Source of the DNA: Candidatus Daviesbacteria bacterium
GTDB lineage: Bacteria > Patescibacteriota > Microgenomatia > Daviesbacterales > UBA10151
Assembly: GCA_016187035.1 (NCBI GenBank)
Contig: JACPKL010000001.1
Coordinates: 14,607-78,606 of the forward strand
Length of the DNA: 64,000 nucleotides
Direction: 5' to 3'
The notes beneath the pieces were generated by a model. It made no database searches. It was not told the origin of the DNA and was given only the letters and a program-made list of their open reading frames with translations. The position numbers and the translations under genes were made by a program. Position 1 is the stretch's first letter. The number at the start of each line of letters is the position of its first letter. Shown in pieces: positions 9,306-64,000 of the stretch.

Positions 9306-9818
9306 TCACAAAATGGTATTAATGGTATTAGCAGTTAAACGATTGACTTCCATTACCACCACCCACTTCTCTATTCCCAAATCTTTAATATATAATTCCA
9401 ATTTATCAAAAACGTTTCTTTTGCTCACCCAAACACTTTTTTGTAAATGCTTAAAACCCCATTTTTTAAGATTTCTTCTAAATAAGTTTCTGATAATTCT
9501 TTTTTGTTCTGGAATATCAAATATTACTATCCTCCACTTTCCATCCCAATCTTTCTCTTCATAATTATCACTGATTAATTCCTTTCCAGCTTGAGTCAGT
9601 TTTATTATTACATCATCCTTGACTTTTGTCTGTTCAATCAACCCCCCTTCCCTTAGTCTTCTTAACGCTTGGGATAAAGAGGATTTCCTAAGCTCAGGGA
9701 TTCCGTATCTGTAACGGTAATGATGATAGGTAAAATCTTCTAAACGAACATAACCATCCACTGTTTTTTCCAATACCAGAAGAATCTTATTTGTCAAACT
9801 CTTTTTATAAACCCTCAT
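9306..9818 (-). CDS. Small PaaX-like regulator (N-terminal wHTH plus Cas2-like/PaaX middle domain)
   Basis: WDGKWRIVIFDIPEQKRIIRNLFRRNLKKWGFKHLQKSVWVS matches the PaaX/Cas2-fold pattern. N-terminal wHTH (LSQALRRLREGGLIE). Paralog at 25795-26310. Confidence 0.6.
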   Translation of the reverse strand: MRVYKKSLTNKILLVLEKTVDGYVRLEDFTYHHYRYRYGIPELRKSSLSQALRRLREGGLIEQTKVKDDVIIKLTQAGKELISDNYEEKDWDGKWRIVIFDIPEQKRIIRNLFRRNLKKWGFKHLQKSVWVSKRNVFDKLELYIKDLGIEKWVVVMEVNRLTANTINTIL

Positions 9819-25794: not shown

Positions 25795-26310
25795 TTATTG
25801 TATGTCCAGAGGACCATACTTTTCAGATTCAAAAACCCATACCCACTTCTCCACTCCTAAATCTCTAATATAATTGAATAATTTATCAGTAACGTTCTTT
25901 TTGGAAATCCAGACACTTTTTTGAAAATGTTTAAAACCCCATTTTTTTAAATTCCTTCTAAAAAGATCTCTTATCAACCTCTTTTGTTCTGGTATATCAA
26001 AAATCACTATTCTCCATTTTCCATCCCAACTTGCTGTACCATCACCAGTCAGCAATATCACTGTCTTACCTTCATCTGTCAATTTCAAAACCACTTGACC
26101 GATATCTTTCTTGTCAGTTTCTATCAGACCCTTCTCTTTTAACCTGGCAATAGCCTTAGATAAAGCAGATTTCTTCAGCTCAGGAATCCCATATCTGTAG
26201 CGATAATGATGGTAGGTAAAATCTTCTAAACGTACATAACCATCAATACTTTTTTCTAAAAAAGTCAAAAGGCTATAACTCAAACTTCCTCTTCTAACCT
26301 CCATACCCAT
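25795..26310 (-). CDS. Small PaaX-like regulator, paralog 2
   Basis: WDGKWRIVIFDIPEQKRLIRDLFRRNLKKWGFKHFQKSVWIS. Long identical blocks with 9306-9818 (YVRLEDFTYHHYRYRYGIPEL). Sits directly upstream of the ABC pair. Confidence 0.6.
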   Translation of the reverse strand: MGMEVRRGSLSYSLLTFLEKSIDGYVRLEDFTYHHYRYRYGIPELKKSALSKAIARLKEKGLIETDKKDIGQVVLKLTDEGKTVILLTGDGTASWDGKWRIVIFDIPEQKRLIRDLFRRNLKKWGFKHFQKSVWISKKNVTDKLFNYIRDLGVEKWVWVFESEKYGPLDIQ

Positions 26311-54488: not shown

Positions 54489-55781
54489 TTAAAGTTTTTT
54501 TCTGAACTGATCGTAGCTGGTTAAAGAAGGAGTACGCTTGGATACCTGATACTGCTGTTTAACTAAAATCCTGGTGTTGTCTTTGACATCTTCATGCAAA
54601 ACCACCCCTGGGCCAATCAGGCAGTTTACTCCAATCCTGACTCCAGGCATGATTGATGCATTTACTCCTACTCTTGAGCCTTTACCAGCTACTGTCCCCA
54701 GTTTGGTTCTGCCTGTATCAATTTTTTCATCCCCTATTCTAATTGTAGCATCATCCAGCCTGAGATTAGCTAAAACTGCACCAGATCCCATCCCAAAATC
54801 CCCTTCTATTACAGAGTCTCCTACATAATTGGTATGAAACCAGCTGTTTCTGCCTATATATGAGCGGGTGATATCGCAGTTAAAACCTGTTACCACCCCT
54901 TCTTCTAAAATAGATTCCCTGATCATAGTGTTGTTACCAACAATGACATTCTTGCCAATGTAACAAGGGCCTTTAATGACAGCCCCTTCAAACACTTTTG
55001 CTCCCTCTTCTATCTTCACATTACCCTCTATAATTGCTTTATCAGACACTTTTGACCCCGGGGAAATATTTTGTTCAAGTGTGGATAAAAAGTAAGCCCC
55101 TGTTTCTAAAATCTGCCAGGGATATTTTAAAGGAATCCACACTCCGTTATATCTAATAAACCTGACATCACAACTATCACAAATCTTAGCTAAAGCTACT
55201 TCATAAACATCATCTTTTTCACTTGAAGCTTCTTCTAGATATGAAACCAGCTTTCCACCATCTCTAAAATAATCTACTACTAGTTTAACTAAATCAGACG
55301 GTTCATTACCCTTGCCAGGTTTTTCCACTATACCCTGTATCCTATCCCTTTTAACCTCTAAATATCCTCCCGGAAAATAACTTTTAACCTGCAAACCTGA
55401 CAAAACCACATCAGATTGAGTATCTGAAGCTGTAGTCAAAACATCCTGATAAACTCTTTCTTCCAAAACATCCTCAGCATTAATAACCAAAATCTCACCG
55501 TTTATATCCTCTTTTGCAGATAAAAGCGCATCTGCCATACCTTTAGGTTCTTCTTGGATAGCTATTTTGTGCTTTATGCCTAGGCTTGAGGCTATTTGAG
55601 AAACCTGATCCCTTGAGGCTTCTTTGGTAACTATAATTACTTCATCAAAGTTTATTCCATCAGCTATTCTTTTCAGAGTATAAGAGATCAAAGGCTGGCC
55701 TAAAAAGGGAATCAGATACTTATCAGTCTGAATAGGCCACATTCTTTTGCCTTCCCCCCCGGCTAGAATTATTATTTTCAT
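54489..55781 (-). CDS. Sugar-phosphate nucleotidyltransferase fused to a left-handed beta-helix domain (GlmU-like architecture)
   Basis: MKIIILAGGEGKRMWP (NTP-transferase G-loop). The C-terminal half has hexapeptide-repeat periodicity (IGKNVIVGNNTMI..). Confidence 0.75.
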   Translation of the reverse strand: MKIIILAGGEGKRMWPIQTDKYLIPFLGQPLISYTLKRIADGINFDEVIIVTKEASRDQVSQIASSLGIKHKIAIQEEPKGMADALLSAKEDINGEILVINAEDVLEERVYQDVLTTASDTQSDVVLSGLQVKSYFPGGYLEVKRDRIQGIVEKPGKGNEPSDLVKLVVDYFRDGGKLVSYLEEASSEKDDVYEVALAKICDSCDVRFIRYNGVWIPLKYPWQILETGAYFLSTLEQNISPGSKVSDKAIIEGNVKIEEGAKVFEGAVIKGPCYIGKNVIVGNNTMIRESILEEGVVTGFNCDITRSYIGRNSWFHTNYVGDSVIEGDFGMGSGAVLANLRLDDATIRIGDEKIDTGRTKLGTVAGKGSRVGVNASIMPGVRIGVNCLIGPGVVLHEDVKDNTRILVKQQYQVSKRTPSLTSYDQFRKKL

Positions 55782-55851
55782 AAAATTAATATACTACTTT
55801 AATTATGATAAACTATTTTACACTAAACAGAAAGGTTGATAGACTTAAATT

Positions 55852-56511
55852 ATGAAAGTTAAGAAAATTAAAAAGAATTATCTTATGCTAATAGGATTAG
55901 TGCTCGTACTTTTTATAATATTTTTTTACTCTACAAAGTCCACAACTCTCTTGCAAGAAATTAGTATTGAACCAGCTTTTCCTTTCAAAACACTCCCACC
56001 AAATACATACAATACAGATAGTTTTTCCTGTAATTCTAATGAGGATTGTGAAATAAATATCTGTCAGTGTACGGCTATGAATAAGAAATACATTAGCCCC
56101 GAAGATAGGTTATGCACAAGGGTATGTGAAGGAATAACTCAATGTATAAACAACAAATGTAAGTTCAAAGAAGATAAATCAGCAAATTGTTATTATTCAA
56201 GAATAATTTGTGTCATGGGTCCATGTAATCCTAAACGGGTTTGTAGTAGTAAAAATCACAGTTTAATAATGGCTGTAGTTAATGATTTATCAAAAAGGCT
56301 AAGGGTGGATAGGAATACAATTATTGTTAACAAAGTGACTGAAGTTATGTGGAGCGATGGTAGTTTAGGTTGCCCAGAACCTGGCAAAATGTATACACAG
56401 GCGACTATTGGTGGCTACAAGATAAGTCTATCTCAGGAAGATAAAACTTATCTTTACCACACTGGACCCCAAGAAAGGTTTATTCTTTGTGAAAATCCAG
56501 AAAAAGATTAG
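55852..56511 (+). CDS. Secreted cysteine-rich hypothetical protein
   Basis: N-terminal TM/signal segment, then a Cys-rich module (CNSNEDCEINICQC..C..C..C..C). Confidence 0.45.
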   Translation: MKVKKIKKNYLMLIGLVLVLFIIFFYSTKSTTLLQEISIEPAFPFKTLPPNTYNTDSFSCNSNEDCEINICQCTAMNKKYISPEDRLCTRVCEGITQCINNKCKFKEDKSANCYYSRIICVMGPCNPKRVCSSKNHSLIMAVVNDLSKRLRVDRNTIIVNKVTEVMWSDGSLGCPEPGKMYTQATIGGYKISLSQEDKTYLYHTGPQERFILCENPEKD

Positions 56512-56559
56512 TCCGATATATCAATCCATTCAGCACTTTGGCGAAGAGGGTGCCCCGTA

Positions 56560-56634
56560 TGGTGGCAGCGACAGGGATCGAACCTGTGACCTAGCGGTTA
56601 TGAGTCGCTCGCTCCGCCACTGAGCTACGCTGCC
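56560..56634 (-). tRNA. tRNA with anticodon CAU; G1-C72 paired, so elongator Met (or Ile2 if lysidine-modified); CCA encoded
   Basis: Own fold of the reverse complement: GGCAGCG-TA-GCTC-AGTGGCG-GAGC-G-AGCGA-CTCATAA-CCGCT-AGGTC-ACAGG-TTCGATC-CCTGT-CGCTGCC-ACCA. Confidence 0.85.
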
Positions 56635-56695
56635 ATACCATTATTATACCAAAGCTGGTCTTGACTCACCCTAAAATTGGGTTTACTGTTAAATT

Positions 56696-58069
56696 ATGAA
56701 TGATTCAGAAAAATTTATAGAAAAAATGGCTGGGGCTCCAGCTTATGTTCTGGATAAAACTTTGGATACCTCAAGGCAGATAGGTGAAACAATCATTACC
56801 AAAAAACAGATAGGCCATGCCAGGAATTACTGGAAATCATTAGGACCAGGGGTTATCACCGGCGCTGCTGATGACGACCCTTCCGGGATCACCACCTATT
56901 CTCAGGCTGGAGCAATGTATGGTTTTAATCTGCTTTGGCTGTCTGCTTTCACCTTTCCTTTAATGGCTATTGTGCAGGAAATGTGTGCCAGAATTGGCCT
57001 GGTAACCGGCAGGGGTCTAGCTGCCAATATCAGGCAGTATTTTCCTAAGTGGGTGCTATATCTGGCCACATTTTTGCTATTTTTTGCCAATTCTTTAAAC
57101 ATTGGAGCAGATTTGGGTGCTATGGCTAAAGCAACTCAACTGATTTTCCCTAAATTGACCTTTACTTCCCTTCTTTTAACTTTTACCACCCTTTCTTTGG
57201 CCCTGCAGATCTTTACCACTTATGAAAAGTATGCTAAATACCTAAAATGGCTGGCTTTGGTATTATTATCTTATGTTTTCTCTGCTTTAACTTTAAATTT
57301 AAATTGGGGGATGATTTTACAAAAAGCTGTGGTGCCTGCCATTACTTTTTCCCGCGATCAGATCTTTTTAATTACAGCTGTTTTAGGCACTACTATTTCA
57401 CCTTATTTATTTTTTTGGCAAACCTCACAAGAAGTTGAAGAACAGATCTTAGGCGGCAAAACTACCCTTAAATTGCGCCGGGAAGAAACTACACCTTTAG
57501 AGATTGGAAACATGAGAACAGATGTCTGGTCTGGCATGTTTTTGTCAAACTTGGTAATGTTTTTTATCATTGCAGCCTGTGCTGCCACACTTTTCACTGC
57601 CGGTATTACAATTACTACTGCCTCTGATGCTGCCCAAGCCTTAAGGCCTATTGCCGGTGAGCAGATTTATCTGCTTTTTGCTTTAGGAATTATTGGAACC
57701 GGGATGTTGGCTGTGCCAATTTTGGCTGGATCTGCCTCTTATGCTTTATCTGAAAGTTTTGGCTGGAAATTGGGATTATATAGAAAGCTGAAAGAGGCTA
57801 ATGCTTTTTATGGAGTGATTATTATTTCAACCGGTATCGGATTAGCTATTAATCTGTTAGGTTTTGATCCTATTAAGGCTTTAATTTATTCAGCTGTGGT
57901 CAATGGGTTAATTGCTCCAGTGGTATTAGTTTTAATAGTATTAATGAGTGGTAATCAAAATATTATGGGCAGATGGACCAATGGCGCTCTCACTACCCTA
58001 CTTGGATGGTTTATTACCCTACTGATGGCTGCAGCAGGCCTAGCCACTATCTTCTATTTATTTGTCTAA
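56696..58069 (+). CDS. NRAMP-family divalent metal cation transporter
   Basis: 457 aa with ~11 TM helices. GPGVITGAADDDPSGITTYSQAGA resembles the NRAMP DPGN-region. Confidence 0.75.
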   Translation: MNDSEKFIEKMAGAPAYVLDKTLDTSRQIGETIITKKQIGHARNYWKSLGPGVITGAADDDPSGITTYSQAGAMYGFNLLWLSAFTFPLMAIVQEMCARIGLVTGRGLAANIRQYFPKWVLYLATFLLFFANSLNIGADLGAMAKATQLIFPKLTFTSLLLTFTTLSLALQIFTTYEKYAKYLKWLALVLLSYVFSALTLNLNWGMILQKAVVPAITFSRDQIFLITAVLGTTISPYLFFWQTSQEVEEQILGGKTTLKLRREETTPLEIGNMRTDVWSGMFLSNLVMFFIIAACAATLFTAGITITTASDAAQALRPIAGEQIYLLFALGIIGTGMLAVPILAGSASYALSESFGWKLGLYRKLKEANAFYGVIIISTGIGLAINLLGFDPIKALIYSAVVNGLIAPVVLVLIVLMSGNQNIMGRWTNGALTTLLGWFITLLMAAAGLATIFYLFV

Positions 58070-58122
58070 ACATTGACTTATTAACTTCTCAAAGCTAAAA
58101 TATGCATTGTTCTTTTAAATAT

Positions 58123-58194
58123 CGCGGGGAAGTGTAACGGCTGCACACAAGGCTCATAATCTTGAGGCAGTGGGTTCGACTCCCGCCCCCGCAA
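58123..58194 (+). tRNA. tRNA with anticodon CAU and a C1xA72 mismatch: probable initiator tRNA-fMet with atypical D-arm and anticodon stem
   Basis: CGCGGGG..GTGT-AACGGCTGC-ACAC..CAAGG-CTCATAA-TCTTG-AGGCA-GTGGG-TTCGACT-CCCGC-CCCCGCA-A. No encoded CCA. Lacks the three consecutive G-C pairs usual in initiator anticodon stems. About 1 nt short of canonical length. Confidence 0.65.
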
Positions 58195-58440
58195 CCTTTT
58201 TTAATCTTAAATTTCTTCATTCTGTTGGGGCATTAAACAAAATTAAAAAATGATAAAAAAAGTTGGTTATAATGTTGACCATAGGCAGTTTGATAAAGAT
58301 AGTTTCATGTTGCCCATTCTACTTTTTAGAAGTAAAGATAAATTGCCTTTTTGTGTAAGAAAATAGTAATAGATGAGTGTTTTATATTGAAATTAGAGAT
58401 AAGAATCTGTTAAAGTTTGTAAGAAGTTTACGAAAGTCTT

Positions 58441-59112
58441 ATGATTTATAAGATATTGATTGCAGAAGACGACATAGGGATACAGAAATACTTAAAAGAA
58501 CTTCTTTTAGATAACCAATACTCAGTGCAGGTGGTGTATGATGGTATTTCTGCTTTAAACAGCATTGCTAAATTACCCCCTGATCTAATTATATTAGATC
58601 TAGGGCTGCCAAATATGAGCGGGGAATCAGTTTGCCAGGAAGTCAGGAAAAAGTACCCCCATCTTCCCATAATTATCTTAACAGCCAAAGACAGTGTTTC
58701 AGATATAGTCCAGGGATTAAATTTAGGAGCAGATGATTATATTACCAAACCCTTTGTGGCTGAGGAGCTGCTGGCCAGGATTAAAGCCAGATTACGTTCT
58801 AACGGTGAGGCTGAGACTAAACTTAAGGTAGGTAATTTGGAACTTGATGATAAAACTCTGGAAGTTAAAAGGGGTGGAAAACCAATTCAACTTACTCCCC
58901 AAGAGTTTAAGCTGTTAGAGTATTTGATGAGAAATAAAGGCAGGATTTTAACAAGAGAGATGATTTTGAATAGAGTTTGGTTATATTCCCAGGATATAGA
59001 AACCAGAGTAGTGGACGTGTATATGGGATATCTAAGAAAAAAGATTGATGGGGAGAGTAAAAAGAAACTGCTTAACTCAGTCAGGGGTTTTGGTTATATG
59101 ATTAAGGAGTAA
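58441..59112 (+). CDS. OmpR/PhoB-family response regulator
   Basis: Receiver domain (DDIG.., phospho-acceptor context IILDLGLP, TAKD), plus a winged-helix output domain (LTPQEFKLLEYLM, RGFGY). Confidence 0.9.
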   Translation: MIYKILIAEDDIGIQKYLKELLLDNQYSVQVVYDGISALNSIAKLPPDLIILDLGLPNMSGESVCQEVRKKYPHLPIIILTAKDSVSDIVQGLNLGADDYITKPFVAEELLARIKARLRSNGEAETKLKVGNLELDDKTLEVKRGGKPIQLTPQEFKLLEYLMRNKGRILTREMILNRVWLYSQDIETRVVDVYMGYLRKKIDGESKKKLLNSVRGFGYMIKE

Positions 59113-59118
59113 TTAAGT

Positions 59119-60240
59119 TTATTGAGCTAGAGTTAGGAATTTATCTGGTTGGTGATCATGTAAATTATAAATATAACTTCTTCTTCTAAATTCTTCAATC
59201 TGTCTTGGCGAGGCTGGTAGTCCGGGTCTTGAGTTCTCACAAACCAGTACTTGTTCAGGAGGTACATTAAAATTTTCAGGTCCTAACAGCCAAGGAATAC
59301 CAAATGATCTCCAAATAAACAGTCTAGCTGCGTCTATACTAACTAGATCAAGTTCCTGGCTTAGATCAGGCAATTCATCCCCAGAAGCAGTAGAATAATC
59401 CCTAATAAATTCCTCAAGTTCCATATTACCAATTTCTGTTGCCAAAACATTTCCACCAGGTCTTTCCGGAGTTCTACTATCGATAGCACGGCTTTCCAGG
59501 TTTCTTTTGTATTGACCCGGCAATGCTGTCATGGCAGTAACCCATAATTTACTTCTTGAATTTGCAAAGACACCTTGATGTGTACTTAAATCGCAAACAG
59601 CGCTCGTACCCCGATCTTTACCGGTTATTTTTGTTCTGCCCCATCTATCAGTCATCCTATATCCTCCTATACAGGGAATCTCTGCAAATACAAAGTTATA
59701 ATCAACTCCAGCCATATATAAGGCATTTGTCAGAATACGTGTGCCGCCTAAAAAATCTCTTTCATCCCAAAGTTTTGAAAGATCTGCTGGATTAGAGGAG
59801 TGTTTGGGACTCACAAAAAACGATCCATCTGCTCTTGGCAGTCTTTGTCCGGCCCACAATGCATCTTGAATAGTCACAATCGTGCTTTGTATCTTCTTTG
59901 CTTCTTTGCCAACTGCCTCTACATGTTCATCAAAATCATCAATTCCTTGGGCAAAGGTTAAGGTTTTCCCGGTTCCCTGCGGCCCTATTATCACACAGTA
60001 CTGTGTATCCCCTGTTTCTAGGAGAGATCTCACAGCATGATCATTCATTTCCCGGGGAGAAGTTAGTCCACCATATGAGCTTGTTAATATAGTTAAATGT
60101 CCGAATCGAAAAGTTGAGGTAAGATAAGCTGTGGCAGCAACATCACCGGCAATATCTGGTTCTGACTCAGGATGACGCTCGACCCAGCTTCTAATTAGAG
60201 CTATTCGTTCTCCAGAGGTCAATCCCTGTTGTTCAGTCAT
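59119..60240 (-). CDS. P-loop NTPase of unknown family, translationally coupled to the upstream histidine kinase
   Basis: Walker A VIIGPQGTGKT and a possible Walker B NFVFAEIP. K-poor, R/G/P-rich composition. ATGA overlap with the HK stop (60237-60240). Confidence 0.5.
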   Translation of the reverse strand: MTEQQGLTSGERIALIRSWVERHPESEPDIAGDVAATAYLTSTFRFGHLTILTSSYGGLTSPREMNDHAVRSLLETGDTQYCVIIGPQGTGKTLTFAQGIDDFDEHVEAVGKEAKKIQSTIVTIQDALWAGQRLPRADGSFFVSPKHSSNPADLSKLWDERDFLGGTRILTNALYMAGVDYNFVFAEIPCIGGYRMTDRWGRTKITGKDRGTSAVCDLSTHQGVFANSRSKLWVTAMTALPGQYKRNLESRAIDSRTPERPGGNVLATEIGNMELEEFIRDYSTASGDELPDLSQELDLVSIDAARLFIWRSFGIPWLLGPENFNVPPEQVLVCENSRPGLPASPRQIEEFRRRSYIYNLHDHQPDKFLTLAQ

Positions 60241-61424
60241 ATATATGAGGGCAGTATTATTTTAACAGTTGTACCAATATTCATTTTTGATTTAATATCG
60301 ATCTTACCGCGGTGCTTTCGAACAATTTCTTTGACCAGAAATAACCCCAGACCCATCCCTTCCCGGTCATGACCTCTGCCACGATAGAACTTATCAAATA
60401 GTTTATTTAGATCTTCTCGGGAAATTCCTTGGCCAAAGTCTTTGATAGTGATGTGTATTTTTTTGCCAATTTTTTTGGCTTTCAGGATGATTTTTGATTT
60501 TTGAGGGGAAAATTTAACAGCGTTATCTAAAATATTAGTCAGCATCCGCAATAGCTTATCCTTATCTCCAAAAATTATATCTTCCTTTAAAGAAAGCTTG
60601 ACCTCGGTTTCCAGCTCTCTGTCTGTATGAATAATCTTAAAATCTTTCTCTGCCTCACAAAGTAATTTCTTAAGGTGTAGTCTTTCAAAATCAATGAAAA
60701 AAGGTTCCCTGGTTGTTCCCACCTGAAGTAATTCCTGAATTAATTTTATTAAACGGGTTGTTTCAGCAGTAATTGAATCAACCCAATCCTTTTTCGGCAG
60801 TCTATTTACATCCGTGTATTGTCTTATCAGTTGGAGATATCCATAAATAGAAGTTACAGGGGTTTTAAGTTCGTGAGAAGCCATCTCCATAAATAACTCC
60901 CGAGCTTCCAGCGCAGACTTGGTTTCCATATAACTTTCCCCTTTATTGATTGCCAAACATGCTAAAGAGCCATATAGTTTCAGCATGCCTAATTGATCTT
61001 TGGATAGTTGTTCTTGCTGTTTTGATAGTATATTTAATACACCGATCGATTTCTGTCTATAAGTTAAAGGAATAAATATAATAGATTTGATATTAAGCTT
61101 ATATATCTTGGCATTTATATCTGCTTTGGTTTCTATTCTAGTAATTACAGGTTGTCTGGATTTGAAAGCCTGATATGCTCTACCTCTTTGTCTGACAGCG
61201 GCAGCAGCTATAATTTCATGATTTGAGTAAATGCGCTTTAATTCCCCTTTACGGTATAACAAAATGGTTCCATAATCTGCAGCTAGTAATCTTAAAGCTT
61301 CCCAAACTATAGCCTGATAGATTTCATCAGGAGTATTTAGAGCTAAAAATCTCAGGGCAGCCTGATCAATCTCCAGTAAGAATTTTCTCAGGGTTATTGA
61401 TGGATTAGTACTATTTTTTTTCAT
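60237..61424 (-). CDS. Cytoplasmic sensor histidine kinase (GAF-like N-domain, HisKA, HATPase_c)
   Basis: H-box SHELKTPVTSIYGY, N-box NILDNAVKF, G-boxes DFGQGI and GLGLFL. No TM segment. Confidence 0.85.
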   Translation of the reverse strand: MKKNSTNPSITLRKFLLEIDQAALRFLALNTPDEIYQAIVWEALRLLAADYGTILLYRKGELKRIYSNHEIIAAAAVRQRGRAYQAFKSRQPVITRIETKADINAKIYKLNIKSIIFIPLTYRQKSIGVLNILSKQQEQLSKDQLGMLKLYGSLACLAINKGESYMETKSALEARELFMEMASHELKTPVTSIYGYLQLIRQYTDVNRLPKKDWVDSITAETTRLIKLIQELLQVGTTREPFFIDFERLHLKKLLCEAEKDFKIIHTDRELETEVKLSLKEDIIFGDKDKLLRMLTNILDNAVKFSPQKSKIILKAKKIGKKIHITIKDFGQGISREDLNKLFDKFYRGRGHDREGMGLGLFLVKEIVRKHRGKIDIKSKMNIGTTVKIILPSYI

Positions 61425-61430
61425 GGTTAT

Positions 61431-61775
61431 TTAGAAAAAGACCTTCCACCAGCCTAACCAATTGGGTAATTTAATTTGAGCTGATTGACTAACCCCCATC
61501 ACCTGTTTTAACCTTTCTTGGGGAATAACCACAATAGTTTCTCCTATCTTAGAAAGTCCAAGTTTATTTCTGGCCTCTTTCTCAATAAATCCTTCTGATT
61601 GAATCTGGGCAAGTTTCTTTTTCAGCTCTCTATTTTTAGCTTCTAATTTATAAACTTTTTCAGCAGCTTGAGATAATCTTTCTCCAGATTTAACAGCATC
61701 CATAATTTGAATCACTAGGTTATATGTAATGATTGAAATAATTATGATTGCTACAGCCAAGATGATTTTTTTCAT
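61431..61775 (-). CDS. Septum formation initiator family protein (FtsB/DivIC-like)
   Basis: Single N-terminal TM helix, a coiled coil (KLEAKNRELKKKLAQIQSE) and IEKEARNKLGLSKIGETIVVIP. Confidence 0.7.
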   Translation of the reverse strand: MKKIILAVAIIIISIITYNLVIQIMDAVKSGERLSQAAEKVYKLEAKNRELKKKLAQIQSEGFIEKEARNKLGLSKIGETIVVIPQERLKQVMGVSQSAQIKLPNWLGWWKVFF

Positions 61776-61796
61776 GTTCTTCCAGTATTGACAAAG

Positions 61797-62690
61797 ATGA
61801 CCTATAACATTACAATATATGATATGATATCACTTCGTGATGCACACCAACAATTTATTGGACACCTGCAAGGTAAATCCCGCGCCTCAGCTACTATCTT
61901 AGCCTATGGTAAAGACATAGAGCAACTGGTGGATTACTTGCAGAATTTGGGTAAGCTTGATCCTAACGAGATTACAACAGAAGATTTGCAAATCTTTATG
62001 GATAGTTTAGCCAAACAATCTTACACTGCTAAATCTATTTCCAGGAAAACTAATTCCACCAAAACCTTCTTTAAGTTTTTGAAAACCACTGGTGTCATTT
62101 CTAATGATCCAGCTACTAATTTGGCTCATCCTAAGTTTGAAAATAAACCTCCCAGAATTTTAACTAAGCTGGAATACAGAGCTTTAAGAGATGCTGCCAG
62201 AACTGATGTCAGGATGATGGCAGTAATTGAGCTGCTTTTACAAACCGGGATCAGAATCGGAGAATTAGCAAAGCTTAGAGTTGAGGATGTTAATTTGGAA
62301 GAAACCTCATCTTTACATGTTCCCCTCTTTGAGGGGGCCAACGAGAGAACTATCCCTTTGATAAAAGCCGCTTCAGAAGCAGTTGCCAAATATTTAGAGA
62401 TCAGGCCAAAATCACCTTCACATTCTTTATTTATCACTAAAACCGGCAGGCCTTTGCTTATCAGAAATATCAGGACTGCAATTGACAGGTATTTCAGAAT
62501 TGCTGGAATTAAGGATGCCAAGGTAAATGACTTAAGACATACCTGGGTTGCACACCAGCTCCAATCCGGTGTACCTATGACTATGGTTTCAAAGCTGGCC
62601 GGACATAAAAGATTATCAACCACAGAAAGATATCTTCAGTTTATCCAAGGCCAGGCAGTTGATGCTAAAGTCAAACTGGAGGAATTGTAA
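61797..62690 (+). CDS. Tyrosine recombinase, XerC/XerD-like
   Basis: N-terminal SAM-like domain. Catalytic residues in context TGIRIGEL (R), LRHTWVAHQL (H-x-x-R) and GHKRLSTTERY (H..Y). The track start is a TTG at 61788. Confidence 0.85.
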   Translation: MTYNITIYDMISLRDAHQQFIGHLQGKSRASATILAYGKDIEQLVDYLQNLGKLDPNEITTEDLQIFMDSLAKQSYTAKSISRKTNSTKTFFKFLKTTGVISNDPATNLAHPKFENKPPRILTKLEYRALRDAARTDVRMMAVIELLLQTGIRIGELAKLRVEDVNLEETSSLHVPLFEGANERTIPLIKAASEAVAKYLEIRPKSPSHSLFITKTGRPLLIRNIRTAIDRYFRIAGIKDAKVNDLRHTWVAHQLQSGVPMTMVSKLAGHKRLSTTERYLQFIQGQAVDAKVKLEEL

Positions 62691-62737
62691 ATAACTTGTA
62701 TCTTGACATAGTTCTGATTTTCTGATATTCTGAAATC

Positions 62738-62995
62738 ATGAAAACTGTCAGTATTGTTCGAGATAGAGGTCAGCTAACGATACCTGATTCTATTCGTAGG
62801 GTTGTAAATTGGATTGCTCCTATGTCTGCTGTATCTATTTCTGTTGTAAAACCTGATGAGATTATTATCAAACCCCACCAGCAACAAATTGATTGGGATC
62901 AGGTTTGGGAAAATATAAGAAAATCTAGAGCCAGTTTAGGTAAGGGTAAGATTAGTGCAGCAGAATTTTTAGAGCAGGATCGTAGATCACATTAA
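62738..62995 (+). CDS. vapB: AbrB/MazE-type antitoxin
   Basis: IVRDRGQLTIPDSIRRVVNW swapped-hairpin motif. Stop overlaps the vapC start. Confidence 0.75.
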   Translation: MKTVSIVRDRGQLTIPDSIRRVVNWIAPMSAVSISVVKPDEIIIKPHQQQIDWDQVWENIRKSRASLGKGKISAAEFLEQDRRSH

Positions 62996-63414
62996 TGAAT
63001 ACCCTAGTTATTGACACATCAGTATTTGTCAAATGGTTAAGCCAAAATAATGAACAAGATCTAGAAAATGCAGATAAAATTCTCCAGGACGTTAAAAATG
63101 GTCAAGCAGAACTTATAGTTCCGGAGTTAATTAAATACGAAGTTGGAAATGTTCTTCTAAAAGGTAAGCAATTAACACCAAATCAAGCACATATTTCTTT
63201 TGGGACTGCATATTCCTTACCGATTACCTTCATTGCAGATTCAGAGCAACAGGCAAAAGATACTTACTCCCTCGCTTATAACTTAGGAATTAACTACTAT
63301 GACGCCTCGTTTATGTCATTGGCTAAACAATATAATGCTACACTAGTAACGAATAACATAAAACACCAAGGAAAAGATTCAACTATTAAAGTTGTCGCAC
63401 TTAAAGATTACTAA
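62995..63414 (+). CDS. vapC: PIN-domain toxin VapC
   Basis: MNTLVIDTSVFVKWL and YDASFMSLAKQYNATLVTNN. PIN acidic residues are present. Confidence 0.8.
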   Translation: MNTLVIDTSVFVKWLSQNNEQDLENADKILQDVKNGQAELIVPELIKYEVGNVLLKGKQLTPNQAHISFGTAYSLPITFIADSEQQAKDTYSLAYNLGINYYDASFMSLAKQYNATLVTNNIKHQGKDSTIKVVALKDY

Positions 63415-63415
63415 G

Positions 63416-63487
63416 TGGGCGGACCAGGATTTGAACCTGGAACCAAATCTGTATAAGAGATTTGCTCTACCGTTGAGCTATCCGCCC
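63416..63487 (-). tRNA. tRNA-Ile with anticodon UAU (reads AUA)
   Basis: Own fold of the reverse complement: GGGCGGA-TA-GCTC-AACGGTA-GAGC-A-AATCT-CTTATAC-AGATT-TGGTT-CCAGG-TTCAAAT-CCTGG-TCCGCCC-A. All stems are Watson-Crick paired. No encoded CCA. Confidence 0.85.
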
Positions 63488-63504
63488 GATCGGTAGTCAT
63501 TATA

Positions 63505-64000
63505 CTAGAGCTTGGCTCTCTGGGCAATTGAGACCTCTACCTGGGTAACATCTCTGCCATACTTTAATCTTGATAACTCCCTGATGGCTTGTCCTATTTG
63601 AGGCTTTAACATTGCTTTCCATTTAACCATGTCTTTGGTGGTATCCAGAGAAAACGGCACTACCGGTTCACCGCTGACTATAGTCTTGATATAAGCATGA
63701 GGAGATTCAATATTAACCAGATCCTGCTCAGAAAAAGTAGGGGAAAACTCATGTTGTAAATAGTTAGCGTCTGTTACTCCTACTCGGAAAGCTATTACAG
63801 TACCCACATTACCAAAAACCGCATTCTTTAAATCTTCGCCAATTTGGCCGATAAATTGATTTGCCACAGTTAAATTAAGTCTATATTTCCTGGCTTCTGA
63901 TAATATATCTGCAAAAGTATCTGTGGCAAAATTTTGGAACTCATCAACATATAAATAAAAATCGCGTCTATCCTCCATCTGCATATCTGTTCTGGACATG
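63505..64000 (-). CDS. C-terminal part of a type IV secretion coupling-protein-like (TraD/VirD4/TraG-family) ATPase; N-terminus outside the window
   Basis: FYLYVDEFQNFATDTFADILSEARKYRLNLTVANQFIGQI (Walker-B-like DEF plus the ARK..L..A.Q block typical of T4CP/HerA-like ATPases). The ORF is open to the window edge. Confidence 0.6.
   Translation of the reverse strand, partial: MSRTDMQMEDRRDFYLYVDEFQNFATDTFADILSEARKYRLNLTVANQFIGQIGEDLKNAVFGNVGTVIAFRVGVTDANYLQHEFSPTFSEQDLVNIESPHAYIKTIVSGEPVVPFSLDTTKDMVKWKAMLKPQIGQAIRELSRLKYGRDVTQVEVSIAQRAKL

Follow-up and report, generated by a model that had tools for sequence, protein, structure and literature searches.

A UAU anticodon dedicated to the isoleucine codon AUA is familiar from eukaryotic cytoplasmic tRNA-Ile(UAU), where it takes the form Psi-A-Psi (Psi, pseudouridine) and its pseudouridylation is often intron-dependent, while a few archaea lacking TiaS carry uncharacterised tRNA-Ile(UAU) genes. 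The canonical bacterial reader is tRNA-Ile2(CAU), whose C34 is converted to lysidine by TilS. Here we describe a gene for tRNA-Ile(UAU) at positions 63416-63487, on the minus strand of a 64,000-nucleotide stretch of a Candidatus Daviesbacteria genome (assembly GCA_016187035.1, contig JACPKL010000001.1, positions 14,607 to 78,606; this whole stretch is called the window below). The gene lies between a VapBC toxin-antitoxin cassette that adjoins a Xer-type recombinase gene and a gene resembling the coupling proteins of type IV secretion systems (T4SS), referred to below as T4CP-like.

Published accounts treat TilS and lysidine as near-universal and essential in bacteria and place tRNA-Ile(UAU) in some 9 to 19 species (PMC3575796, PMC4013482): nine species in three clades are without tilS and have tRNA-Ile(TAT) (PMC3575796), tRNADB-CE lists a TAT anticodon in 19 bacterial species (PMC4013482), and a 2021 review regards UAU as lost in prokaryotes (PMC8007984). 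In Mycoplasma mobile, U34 of tRNA-Ile2(UAU) is unmodified, the isoleucyl-tRNA synthetase (IleRS) carries Arg where a Trp otherwise meets the wobble base, and AUG is rejected by the ribosome; the IleRS of Bifidobacterium and Neorickettsia is of the eukaryote type (IleRS2) (PMC3575796).

We consider it highly probable that the window gene is a vertically inherited chromosomal tRNA-Ile(UAU) and the ordinary AUA reader of an ultrasmall, Daviesbacteria-like member of the Microgenomatia, within the Candidate Phyla Radiation (CPR, or Patescibacteria). In the literature searched we found no paper on CPR/Patescibacteria that treats lysidine, TilS or AUA decoding, and a preprint on IleRS evolution holds nothing on CPR; the lineage-wide UAU pattern described here appears to be undescribed in that literature. 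Related loci fetched for comparison are designated by L and a number.

Identity, promoter and family of the tRNA

ARAGORN called three tRNA genes in the window, one of them a minus-strand tRNA-Ile(tat) at 63415-63487. The Rfam tRNA model RF00005 matched 63416-63487 on the same strand over its full length, scoring 73.4 bits against a gathering score of 29 (E = 3.5e-14) with zero non-canonical pairs flagged, which places the gene in that family as the highest-scoring of the three. The gene is 72 nt long (GGGCGGAUAGCUCAACGGUAGAGCAAAUCUCUUAUACAGAUUUGGUUCCAGGUUCAAAUCCUGGUCCGCCCA), has no intron, carries its TAT anticodon at 63453-63455 and, read from the window as RNA, divides into the arms GGGCGGA-UA-GCUC-AACGGUA-GAGC-A-AAUCU-CUUAUAC-AGAUU-UGGUU-CCAGG-UUCAAAU-CCUGG-UCCGCCC-A. 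The preliminary description of the window had reported a sound cloverleaf at this position with the anticodon loop CU-UAU-AC, leaving the strand unstated; the sequence itself, the anticodon given by ARAGORN and the mispair-free Rfam match all agree with it, and the strand is minus.

The anticodon loop reads C32 U33 U34 A35 U36 A37 C38 and has the NAU anticodon of an isoleucine tRNA (A35 and U36) followed by a purine, A37; both A37 and C32 are invariant in 156/156 distinct members of the tRNA-Ile(UAU) family. Nureki et al. reportedly showed in 1994 that E. coli IleRS recognises A73, C4-G69, U12-A23, C29-G41 and A38. The discriminator A73 and the pairs C4-G69 and U12-A23 are all present in the window tRNA, which shares them with the tRNA-Ile(GAU) of a CPR relative (L048); the pair 29-41 is U-A and position 38 is C, both at variance with the E. 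coli set. Position 38 is C in the majority of the family (108/156 distinct sequences, together with C32), unlike the A38 of the sole tRNA-Ile(GAU) seen. This C32...C38 loop may matter for decoding or identity; since the sampled tRNAs for Asp and Glu show the same combination, we put no weight on it.

Upstream of the tRNA, a consensus scan found a sigma-70-like promoter at 63499..63527 on the minus strand, a pattern match at 10/12 positions, in which 17 nt separate a -35 box TTGCCC (63527-63522) from a -10 box TATAAT (63504-63499) that ends 11 nt before the 5' end of the tRNA. The promoter overlaps the 3' end of the T4CP-like gene, and the corresponding plus-strand block ATTATA is invariant in a four-way alignment of the window with L011, L029 and L123. 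The tRNA thus appears to have a conserved putative promoter box of its own.

The window is about 37% G+C, and its nearest sequences are all Daviesbacteria metagenome-assembled genomes (Microgenomatia, CPR). The locus L011 is 93% identical to it in the tRNA, 91% in the C-terminus of the T4CP-like protein and 78% in Xer, L029 is 80% identical in Xer, and L067 is 80% identical in an Nramp gene. A scan for breadth, using one genome per GTDB species and a degenerate pattern that fixed the D arm, the CTTATA of the anticodon loop and the conserved T-loop bases and left the acceptor, anticodon and T stems free, returned at least 119 matching stretches. Among the matches listed, 94 carry CPR lineage names, including Daviesbacteria, Gottesmanbacteria, Levyibacteriota, Collierbacteria, Paceibacteria, Uhrbacteria, Kaiserbacteria, Doudnabacteria and others; the remaining matches listed are mostly unlabelled bins or Third Party Annotation (TPA) bins tagged 'Gammaproteobacteria', several of them with CPR synteny. 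ARAGORN confirmed tRNA-Ile(tat) in 30/30 loci submitted to it and called 160 tRNA-Ile(tat) genes across all sequences.

An alignment of 90 distinct tRNA-Ile(UAU) sequences bears the marks of a maintained structure. The cloverleaf is paired in 99.6% of cells, 16/17 variable pairs show compensatory (two-sided) change, and the covariation score of 0.755 compares with 0.166 in shuffles (0/500 shuffles reach 0.755) and with about 0.1 after sliding of the 3' partners. A73 is invariant though the pattern left it unconstrained, and C4-G69 occurs in about 80% of the family. Judging from these patterns, the family members are probably functional tRNAs under purifying selection and not chance matches, and the UAU anticodon appears to be lineage-wide and ordinary in these CPR groups. 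The rarity that the preliminary description had ascribed to an encoded UAU agrees with the published surveys (PMC3575796, PMC4013482) and fails within the CPR.

Some of the bins have labels and contents at variance with each other. The tRNA of a bin labelled 'Saccharibacteria' (L018) is identical to that of an Adlerbacteria bin (L120), and bins tagged Gammaproteobacteria, Pseudomonadales or Bathyarchaeia (L064, L068, L093, L005) have, next to the tRNA, a gene closely homologous to the T4CP-like gene of CPR, with L064, L068 and L005 carrying the Xer gene also. A phage origin of tRNA-Ile(UAU) was considered and rejected: an exact-pattern scan of viral contigs with the anticodon arm, allowing any base at position 34, gave no match.

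These observations bear on whether the gene might be a non-functional relic or have had its isotype mis-called. Such a reading could draw on the unencoded CCA and on C38 and U29-A41, which differ from the E. coli isoleucine identity set. In the window, A73 is followed by CUU, that is, by a base C and then the vapC stop codon, and the tRNA-Ile(UAU) of L011 does encode CCA, which the window has lost at the junction of the VapBC insertion. Against a relic stand the perfect cloverleaf with the highest Rfam score among the window's tRNAs, the conserved promoter box, the compensatory changes and invariant A73 of the family, and the fact that C38 is itself the family's majority state. We give this alternative hardly any credence and take the gene to be a real, functional-looking isoleucine tRNA, with predicted charging and expression.

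AUA usage and the decoding system

The preliminary description had proposed a check of AUA usage, and the codon proves to be common: in 53 long non-overlapping open reading frames (ORFs) of the window, totalling 18,153 codons, ATA accounts for 447/1470 isoleucine codons (30%), which amounts to 24.6 per 1000 codons and calls for an efficient AUA reader. Its meaning was examined in four window genes with many homologues in the fetched loci, a small sample of 14 AUA codons. The residues aligned at these positions are I 48%, V 15%, L 12% and M 6%, a profile similar to that at AUU positions (I 52%, V 24%, L 10%) and different from that at AUG positions, which align mainly with Met (M 30%). AUA is frequent in the window and means isoleucine.

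The alignment also bears on the possibility that the UAU tRNA is an ambiguous reader of both AUA and AUG, or that AUA has been reassigned. An unmodified or xm5-modified U34 is able to wobble with G, and a Bacillus subtilis suppressor tRNA-Ile(UAU) is reportedly a case of such ambiguous reading. The AUA positions nevertheless align with Ile, Val and Leu much as AUU positions do, with little Met, and the AUG positions keep mainly to Met, which makes an altered meaning extremely unlikely.

The other two tRNA genes of the window, found by both ARAGORN and Rfam, carry CAU anticodons. One, at 56560..56634 on the minus strand, is of the elongator tRNA-Met type (GGCAGCG...CGCUGCC-A, with CCA encoded); it belongs to the 'GGCAGGG' class that accompanies the initiator in related loci and is without the C4-G69 pair seen in most isoleucine tRNAs. 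The other, at 58123..58196 on the plus strand, is of the initiator type, with a C1xA72 mismatch (class 'CGCGGGG...CCCCGCA-A'). Across the window and the fetched loci, which together span 1.3 Mb, 29/29 CAU tRNAs fall into the initiator or elongator class, and none resembles an isoleucine tRNA. The SGGxDS PP-loop motif of TilS was found neither in the window nor in the 202 fetched loci. The genes tilS and hpt often lie beside ftsH; the neighbours of ftsH found here are genes for an AAA ATPase and a DUF5667 protein, with no tilS or hpt near it. A search of the window and loci for IleRS found, among long ORFs with KMSKS, only ValRS-like ones (the 953-aa protein of L047 by full sequence, that of L118 by motif only).

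Complete genomes carry the comparison further. For 95 complete Patescibacteria genomes, Table S2 of PMC13011429 lists how many tRNAs tRNAscan-SE and ARAGORN assign to each amino acid; since ARAGORN goes by the anticodon in naming a tRNA, its 'Met' count is that of all CAU tRNAs. All 12 of the 12 Microgenomatia genomes have at least two Ile tRNAs and at most two CAU tRNAs by ARAGORN (PMC13011429), which leaves room for an initiator and an elongator tRNA-Met and none for tRNA-Ile2. The same combination occurs in Dojkabacteria (7/7), Paceibacteria (13/20), ABY1 (2/4) and Gracilibacteria (2/5), and in single Doudnabacteria, WWE3 and UBA1384 genomes (PMC13011429). At least three CAU tRNAs, in most cases with a single Ile tRNA, occur in Saccharimonadia (36/36), JAEDAM01 (7/7), Kazan-3B-28, Gracilibacteria (3/5) and Paceibacteria (6/20) (PMC13011429). 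The authors of that table do not discuss this reciprocal pattern, which suggests two alternative AUA-decoding systems within the phylum.

On such a division, Microgenomatia, Dojkabacteria and most Paceibacteria would have an encoded tRNA-Ile(UAU) in place of tRNA-Ile2(CAU) and TilS, as would Doudnabacteria, WWE3 and UBA1384, with one genome each. Lysidine would be kept in Saccharimonadia, in the Absconditabacteria-like JAEDAM01, in the single Kazan-3B-28 genome and in part of the Gracilibacteria and Paceibacteria. A trait common to the whole phylum was considered and rejected on the three CAU tRNAs of Saccharimonadia (PMC13011429, Table S2).

Alternatively, the genome could also contain tilS and a tRNA-Ile2(CAU), with the UAU tRNA a second, dispensable reader. 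The two systems do co-occur in Lactobacillus casei/plantarum, Cyanothece and Ferrimonas (PMC3575796), two Ile tRNAs are combined with three CAU tRNAs in two ABY1, one Paceibacteria and several Saccharimonadia genomes (PMC13011429), and 64 kb of the source genome has been seen. The counts in complete Microgenomatia genomes point the other way, as do the restriction of CAU tRNAs in the window and related loci to the initiator and elongator classes, the lack of an SGGxDS PP-loop protein in the window and of tilS/hpt around ftsH, and the conservation of the UAU tRNA over deep CPR lineages with strong covariation. Redundancy is therefore unlikely in our judgement, if less so than the other alternatives weighed here.

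Several considerations weigh against taking the gene as the ordinary, lysidine-free AUA reader of its lineage. The expression and charging of the tRNA are predictions from sequence, and two elements of the E. coli IleRS identity set are changed: the pair 29-41 is U-A and not C-G, and position 38 is C and not A. The breadth scan demanded a UAU loop, so it speaks to how widely tRNA-Ile(UAU) is distributed and not to its frequency, and many of the TPA bin labels among its matches ('Saccharibacteria', 'Gammaproteobacteria') look unreliable. The evidence on CAU tRNAs and tilS from the source genome itself spans 64 kb. Table S2 counts tRNAs per amino acid and not per anticodon, and it is our own reading that the second Ile tRNA is the UAU one.

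Gene neighbourhood and insertions at the tRNA

The surroundings of the tRNA in the window begin with a DivIC/FtsB-like septum-formation gene at 61431..61775 on the minus strand (Pfam DivIC), which stands beside Xer in related loci, and a XerC/XerD-like tyrosine recombinase gene at 61788..62690 on the plus strand (Pfam Phage_integrase and a SAM-like domain; best NCBIfam matches XerC, XerD and XerA). In 35 related loci a recombinase 43-86% identical to it keeps the same place in the gene order, and it is probably a housekeeping Xer. On the 5' side of the tRNA, at 63505..64000 on the minus strand, lies the 3' end of the gene for a T4SS coupling-protein-like ATPase (Pfam TraG-D_C), which runs off the window and contributes the last 164 codons of a protein of about 780 aa. 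These 164 C-terminal residues are 46-91% identical to homologues across the fetched related loci, and the full-length homologue in L011 (780 aa) matches DUF87/HerA, TrwB_AAD_bind and TraG-D_C in Pfam and TraD/VirD4-like models in NCBIfam. Past this gene, L011 has a small ORF with no Pfam match and a gene for an NAD-binding oxidoreductase, not a T4SS cluster. Across 2,918 CPR genomes, 5,713 VirD4-type coupling-protein homologues have been counted, 148 of them near virB4 (bioRxiv 10.1101/2025.01.22.634366); being widespread in CPR and mostly away from virB4, these genes are therefore ordinary chromosomal genes and not a marker of mobility.

The gene order DivIC, Xer, tRNA-Ile(UAU), T4CP-like gene recurs in many genomes by tblastn. 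To avoid selecting on the tRNA, we scanned metagenomes by alignment of the T4CP C-terminus alone, which yielded 80 loci; pooled with the loci obtained earlier, 36 hold both Xer and the T4CP-like gene. A tRNA-Ile(tat) stands between the two in 32/36, another tRNA in 0/36 and no tRNA in 4/36, which makes the slot a core and syntenic one and not cargo. The neighbours named in the preliminary description (a Xer-type recombinase, an AbrB-like antitoxin with a PIN toxin, and a T4CP-like gene) are those that Pfam and NCBIfam find. We conclude that Xer, the T4CP-like gene and the tRNA itself belong to the syntenic core, with only VapBC accessory. In 11/32 of the syntenic loci (L125, L129, L094, L107, L149, L160, L167, L177, L051, L122 and L064) the tRNA is inverted relative to the T4CP-like gene, with the order and orientation of the flanking genes kept.

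The VapBC cassette occupies 62691..63414 on the plus strand, between the Xer stop codon and the 3' end of the tRNA, and comprises a promoter-like site at 62703-62731 (promoter scan), an AbrB-like antitoxin gene at 62738-62995 (AbrB match) and a gene for a PIN toxin, VapC, at 62995-63414 (Pfam PIN). By alignment, 62691-63414 is a clean 724-bp insertion relative to L011 and L029, where VapBC is absent and the Xer stop abuts the tRNA 3' end at distances of 0 and 2 nt. We interpret the cassette as a small, apparently strain-specific insertion at the 3' side of the tRNA.

Comparable variation surrounds the tRNA in relatives. In the 32 syntenic loci, the spacers on its two sides are as short as 3 nt and as long as about 2,700 nt, and the small genes in them are unrelated: PIN/antitoxin pairs, 23S-rRNA-intervening-sequence four-helix proteins, a PIG-L deacetylase, proteins of roughly 220 aa that bear an IS630/Tc1-like helix-turn-helix and ORFs with no Pfam match. 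L151, whose Xer is 50% identical, carries at this position a VapBC homologous to that of the window (VapC 49% and VapB 34% identical). In relatives, the flanks of tRNA-Ile(UAU) form a hot spot of recombination and insertion. Examples of such spacers are L124 3676-4402, L151 3589-4364, L067 6262-7321 and L167 646-1668, and the window, L123 and L124, with Xer at least 84% identical, have three different spacer contents. Three public Logan contigs with an identical VapC all stop exactly 30 nt into the tRNA (L001 4439-4468, L002 1979-2008 and L003 1290-1319, corresponding to window 63415-63444). A break at this point is that of a graph branch at k = 31, and genomes sharing the 3' end of the tRNA and having another flank therefore co-occur there, in SRR12113424, SRR12113420 and SRR12113385.

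The preliminary description had left open whether the gene is the core AUA decoder or the cargo or attachment site of a mobile region. For a mobile feature, that is, tRNA cargo or an occupied attB of an element marked by the recombinase, VapBC and the T4CP-like gene, one could cite the presence of a tyrosine recombinase, a toxin-antitoxin module and a T4CP-like gene around the tRNA, the Logan breaks with their differing flanks, and the tRNA half-fragments and variable cassettes found at this site in relatives. An occupied attB would be expected to leave a direct repeat bounding the inserted DNA, and none lies within the window, which reaches 513 bp past the tRNA on its 5', T4CP side. Searched for across the whole 64 kb with up to 3 mismatches allowed, the tRNA 3' end (as a 25-mer or a 16-mer) occurs nowhere else, a direct-repeat search of 40-64 kb returned the tRNA gene itself and no att-type repeat, and a permissive Rfam search (E <= 10) found no tRNA-like fragments in 55000-64000. 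Nor are the flanking genes missing at the same site in relatives, where DivIC, Xer and the T4CP-like gene keep their order around the tRNA across lineages, down to about 45% identity. The recombinase best matches XerC/XerD models, relatives have the small ORF and the oxidoreductase gene past the T4CP-like gene in place of T4SS genes, and the 724 bp of VapBC is the sole extra DNA relative to L011 and L029.

We accordingly regard a mobile-region feature as very unlikely. With Xer and the T4CP-like gene conserved neighbours (45-91%) and only VapBC accessory, the tRNA is best read as neither cargo nor a currently occupied attachment site, and it is the other half of the preliminary proposal, the core AUA decoder, that the slot shared across Microgenomatia, the promoter box, the covarying CPR family and the frequent AUA codons read as isoleucine favour. 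For its lineage this is an ordinary core gene, and it does not mark a mobile island.

In relatives, the tRNA itself is the site of a further kind of rearrangement. A hidden Markov model of the family finds half-tRNAs adjoining an intact tRNA-Ile(UAU) in about 23 related loci, with breaks clustering inside the anticodon, and in at least 8 of the related loci an outer 5' half, an intact tRNA and an outer 3' half follow one another on one strand. In several nested loci inverted repeats extend the acceptor stem of the inner tRNA, as with CAATCAAAATTT and AAATTTTGATTG in L067, a Daviesbacteria locus. Inverted repeats that flank the tRNA and match perfectly over at least 8 bp occur at 10/151 distinct tRNA-Ile(UAU) loci, against 1/101 other tRNAs, and the sole exception among these 101, a tRNA-Met, is nested in the same way. 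In L092 one base of sequence distinguishes the outer copy from the inner, and L010 has an empty palindrome of the same repeat family within the outer anticodon loop. The pattern looks like a small element that, in relatives, enters the anticodon loop together with a replacement tRNA. The nested layout is absent from the window itself, and a brief literature search found no precedent for a tRNA nested in a tRNA.

The nested tRNA-Ile(UAU) loci include L123 960-1165, L125 3495-3680, L067 6700-6880, L017 850-1034, L025 1773-2044, L092 566-782, L010 2229-2519, L033 6258-6694 and L043 780-1034, and the layout is seen also in one tRNA-Met(CAU), at L132 6116-6296. Beside the tRNA in four loci are ORFs of about 220-250 aa (L122 6186-6863, L064 4445-5209, L141 1020-1706 and L189 3551-4207), each with an N-terminal HTH_23 domain and a C-terminal part with no family match; two of them have weak matches to the helix-turn-helix models of IS630 or Sleeping Beauty transposases. 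These ORFs could encode the candidate mobilising or homing protein of the nested insertions.

That Patescibacteria are split by class into two AUA systems and that tRNA-Ile(UAU) is also a recurrent target of small insertions, flanked by inverted repeats, which bring a substitute tRNA-Ile(UAU) into the resident gene at its anticodon loop, is a joint proposition to which we lean, with confidence only slightly better than even.

Two other features of the window stand apart from the tRNA. Up to about 56 kb the GC skew is about -0.1 to -0.26 and nearly all long ORFs lie on the minus strand, and in 56000-64000 the skew is near zero and gene orientation is mixed, with a cumulative skew minimum at about 56 kb. 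This shift could mark a replication origin or terminus region, or a strand-composition disparity, which is said to have been reported for a Microgenomates genome. In addition, two paralogous ORFs of about 170 aa, at 9306-9818 and 25795-26310, both on the minus strand, have in common an N-terminal motif ...VDGYVRLEDFTYHHYRYRYG...

Comparison with described AUA readers

Taken together, these data are compatible with the following course of events for the window tRNA. Transcription would start, from a promoter belonging to the gene itself, immediately after the stop codon of the T4CP-like gene upstream; the pattern and its conservation are observed, and activity is presumed. The transcript would be trimmed and, as the missing CCA implies, CCA added enzymatically. 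IleRS would then charge the tRNA through A73, C4-G69, U12-A23, A35, U36 and A37, the last perhaps as t6A37 (t6A, N6-threonylcarbamoyladenosine); the elements themselves are all present. Through U34-A pairing the tRNA would read AUA, whose abundance and isoleucine meaning are plain from the codon data. Because of the class-level tRNA counts and the two-class local repertoire of CAU tRNAs, we think this reading most likely free of lysidine, proceeding without tRNA-Ile2(CAU) and TilS in a manner akin to that of the M. mobile tRNA-Ile2(UAU). Misreading of AUG would have to be avoided, perhaps by a U34 that is unmodified or bears a special modification, by the C32/C38 context of the loop or by features of the ribosome.

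If the division by class is correct, lysidine-free AUA decoding would be the norm for thousands of bacterial species, of which the window tRNA would be typical, and many more bacteria than now recognised would separate AUA from AUG without lysidine. Such lineages would offer natural material on how IleRS and the ribosome handle U34 and would bear on the proposal that UAU is the ancestral AUA reader. The pattern would matter also for annotation pipelines that expect a tRNA-Ile2(CAU) and tilS as core markers.

Among described systems, the canonical tRNA-Ile2(CAU) with TilS resembles the window tRNA in reading AUA as isoleucine and in acceptor features of the A73 and C4-G69 type; it differs in that the window encodes TAT, so that no conversion of C34 to lysidine is needed. 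The eukaryotic and archaeal tRNA-Ile(UAU) likewise dedicate UAU to AUA, and the window gene lacks the intron. The tRNA attB sites of integrative elements are comparable in that VapBC lies exactly at the tRNA 3' end and half-fragments occur in relatives; unlike such sites, the window shows neither a duplicated part of the tRNA nor an integrase carried by an element nor large cargo, and the adjacent recombinase is a conserved, Xer-like one. Bifidobacterium and Neorickettsia likewise carry tRNA-Ile(TAT); they are without tilS, and their change, too, is at the level of a lineage and not of a strain (PMC3575796).

The closest parallel is M. mobile, in which an encoded UAU tRNA with A37 likewise serves AUA, the lysidine pathway is probably absent in both cases, and a reduced, A+T-rich genome uses AUA frequently (PMC3575796). 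The window has both the encoded TAT anticodon and the use of AUA as isoleucine that characterise this lysidine-independent type of decoding. A point of difference is position 38, where the window loop has C in place of the E. coli identity element A38. They differ also in phylogenetic scale: M. mobile represents a loss in a single species inside a tilS-bearing clade, whereas here the tRNA is common to whole CPR classes. The window gene adds to the known M. mobile type of decoding an instance that is ordinary for its lineage.

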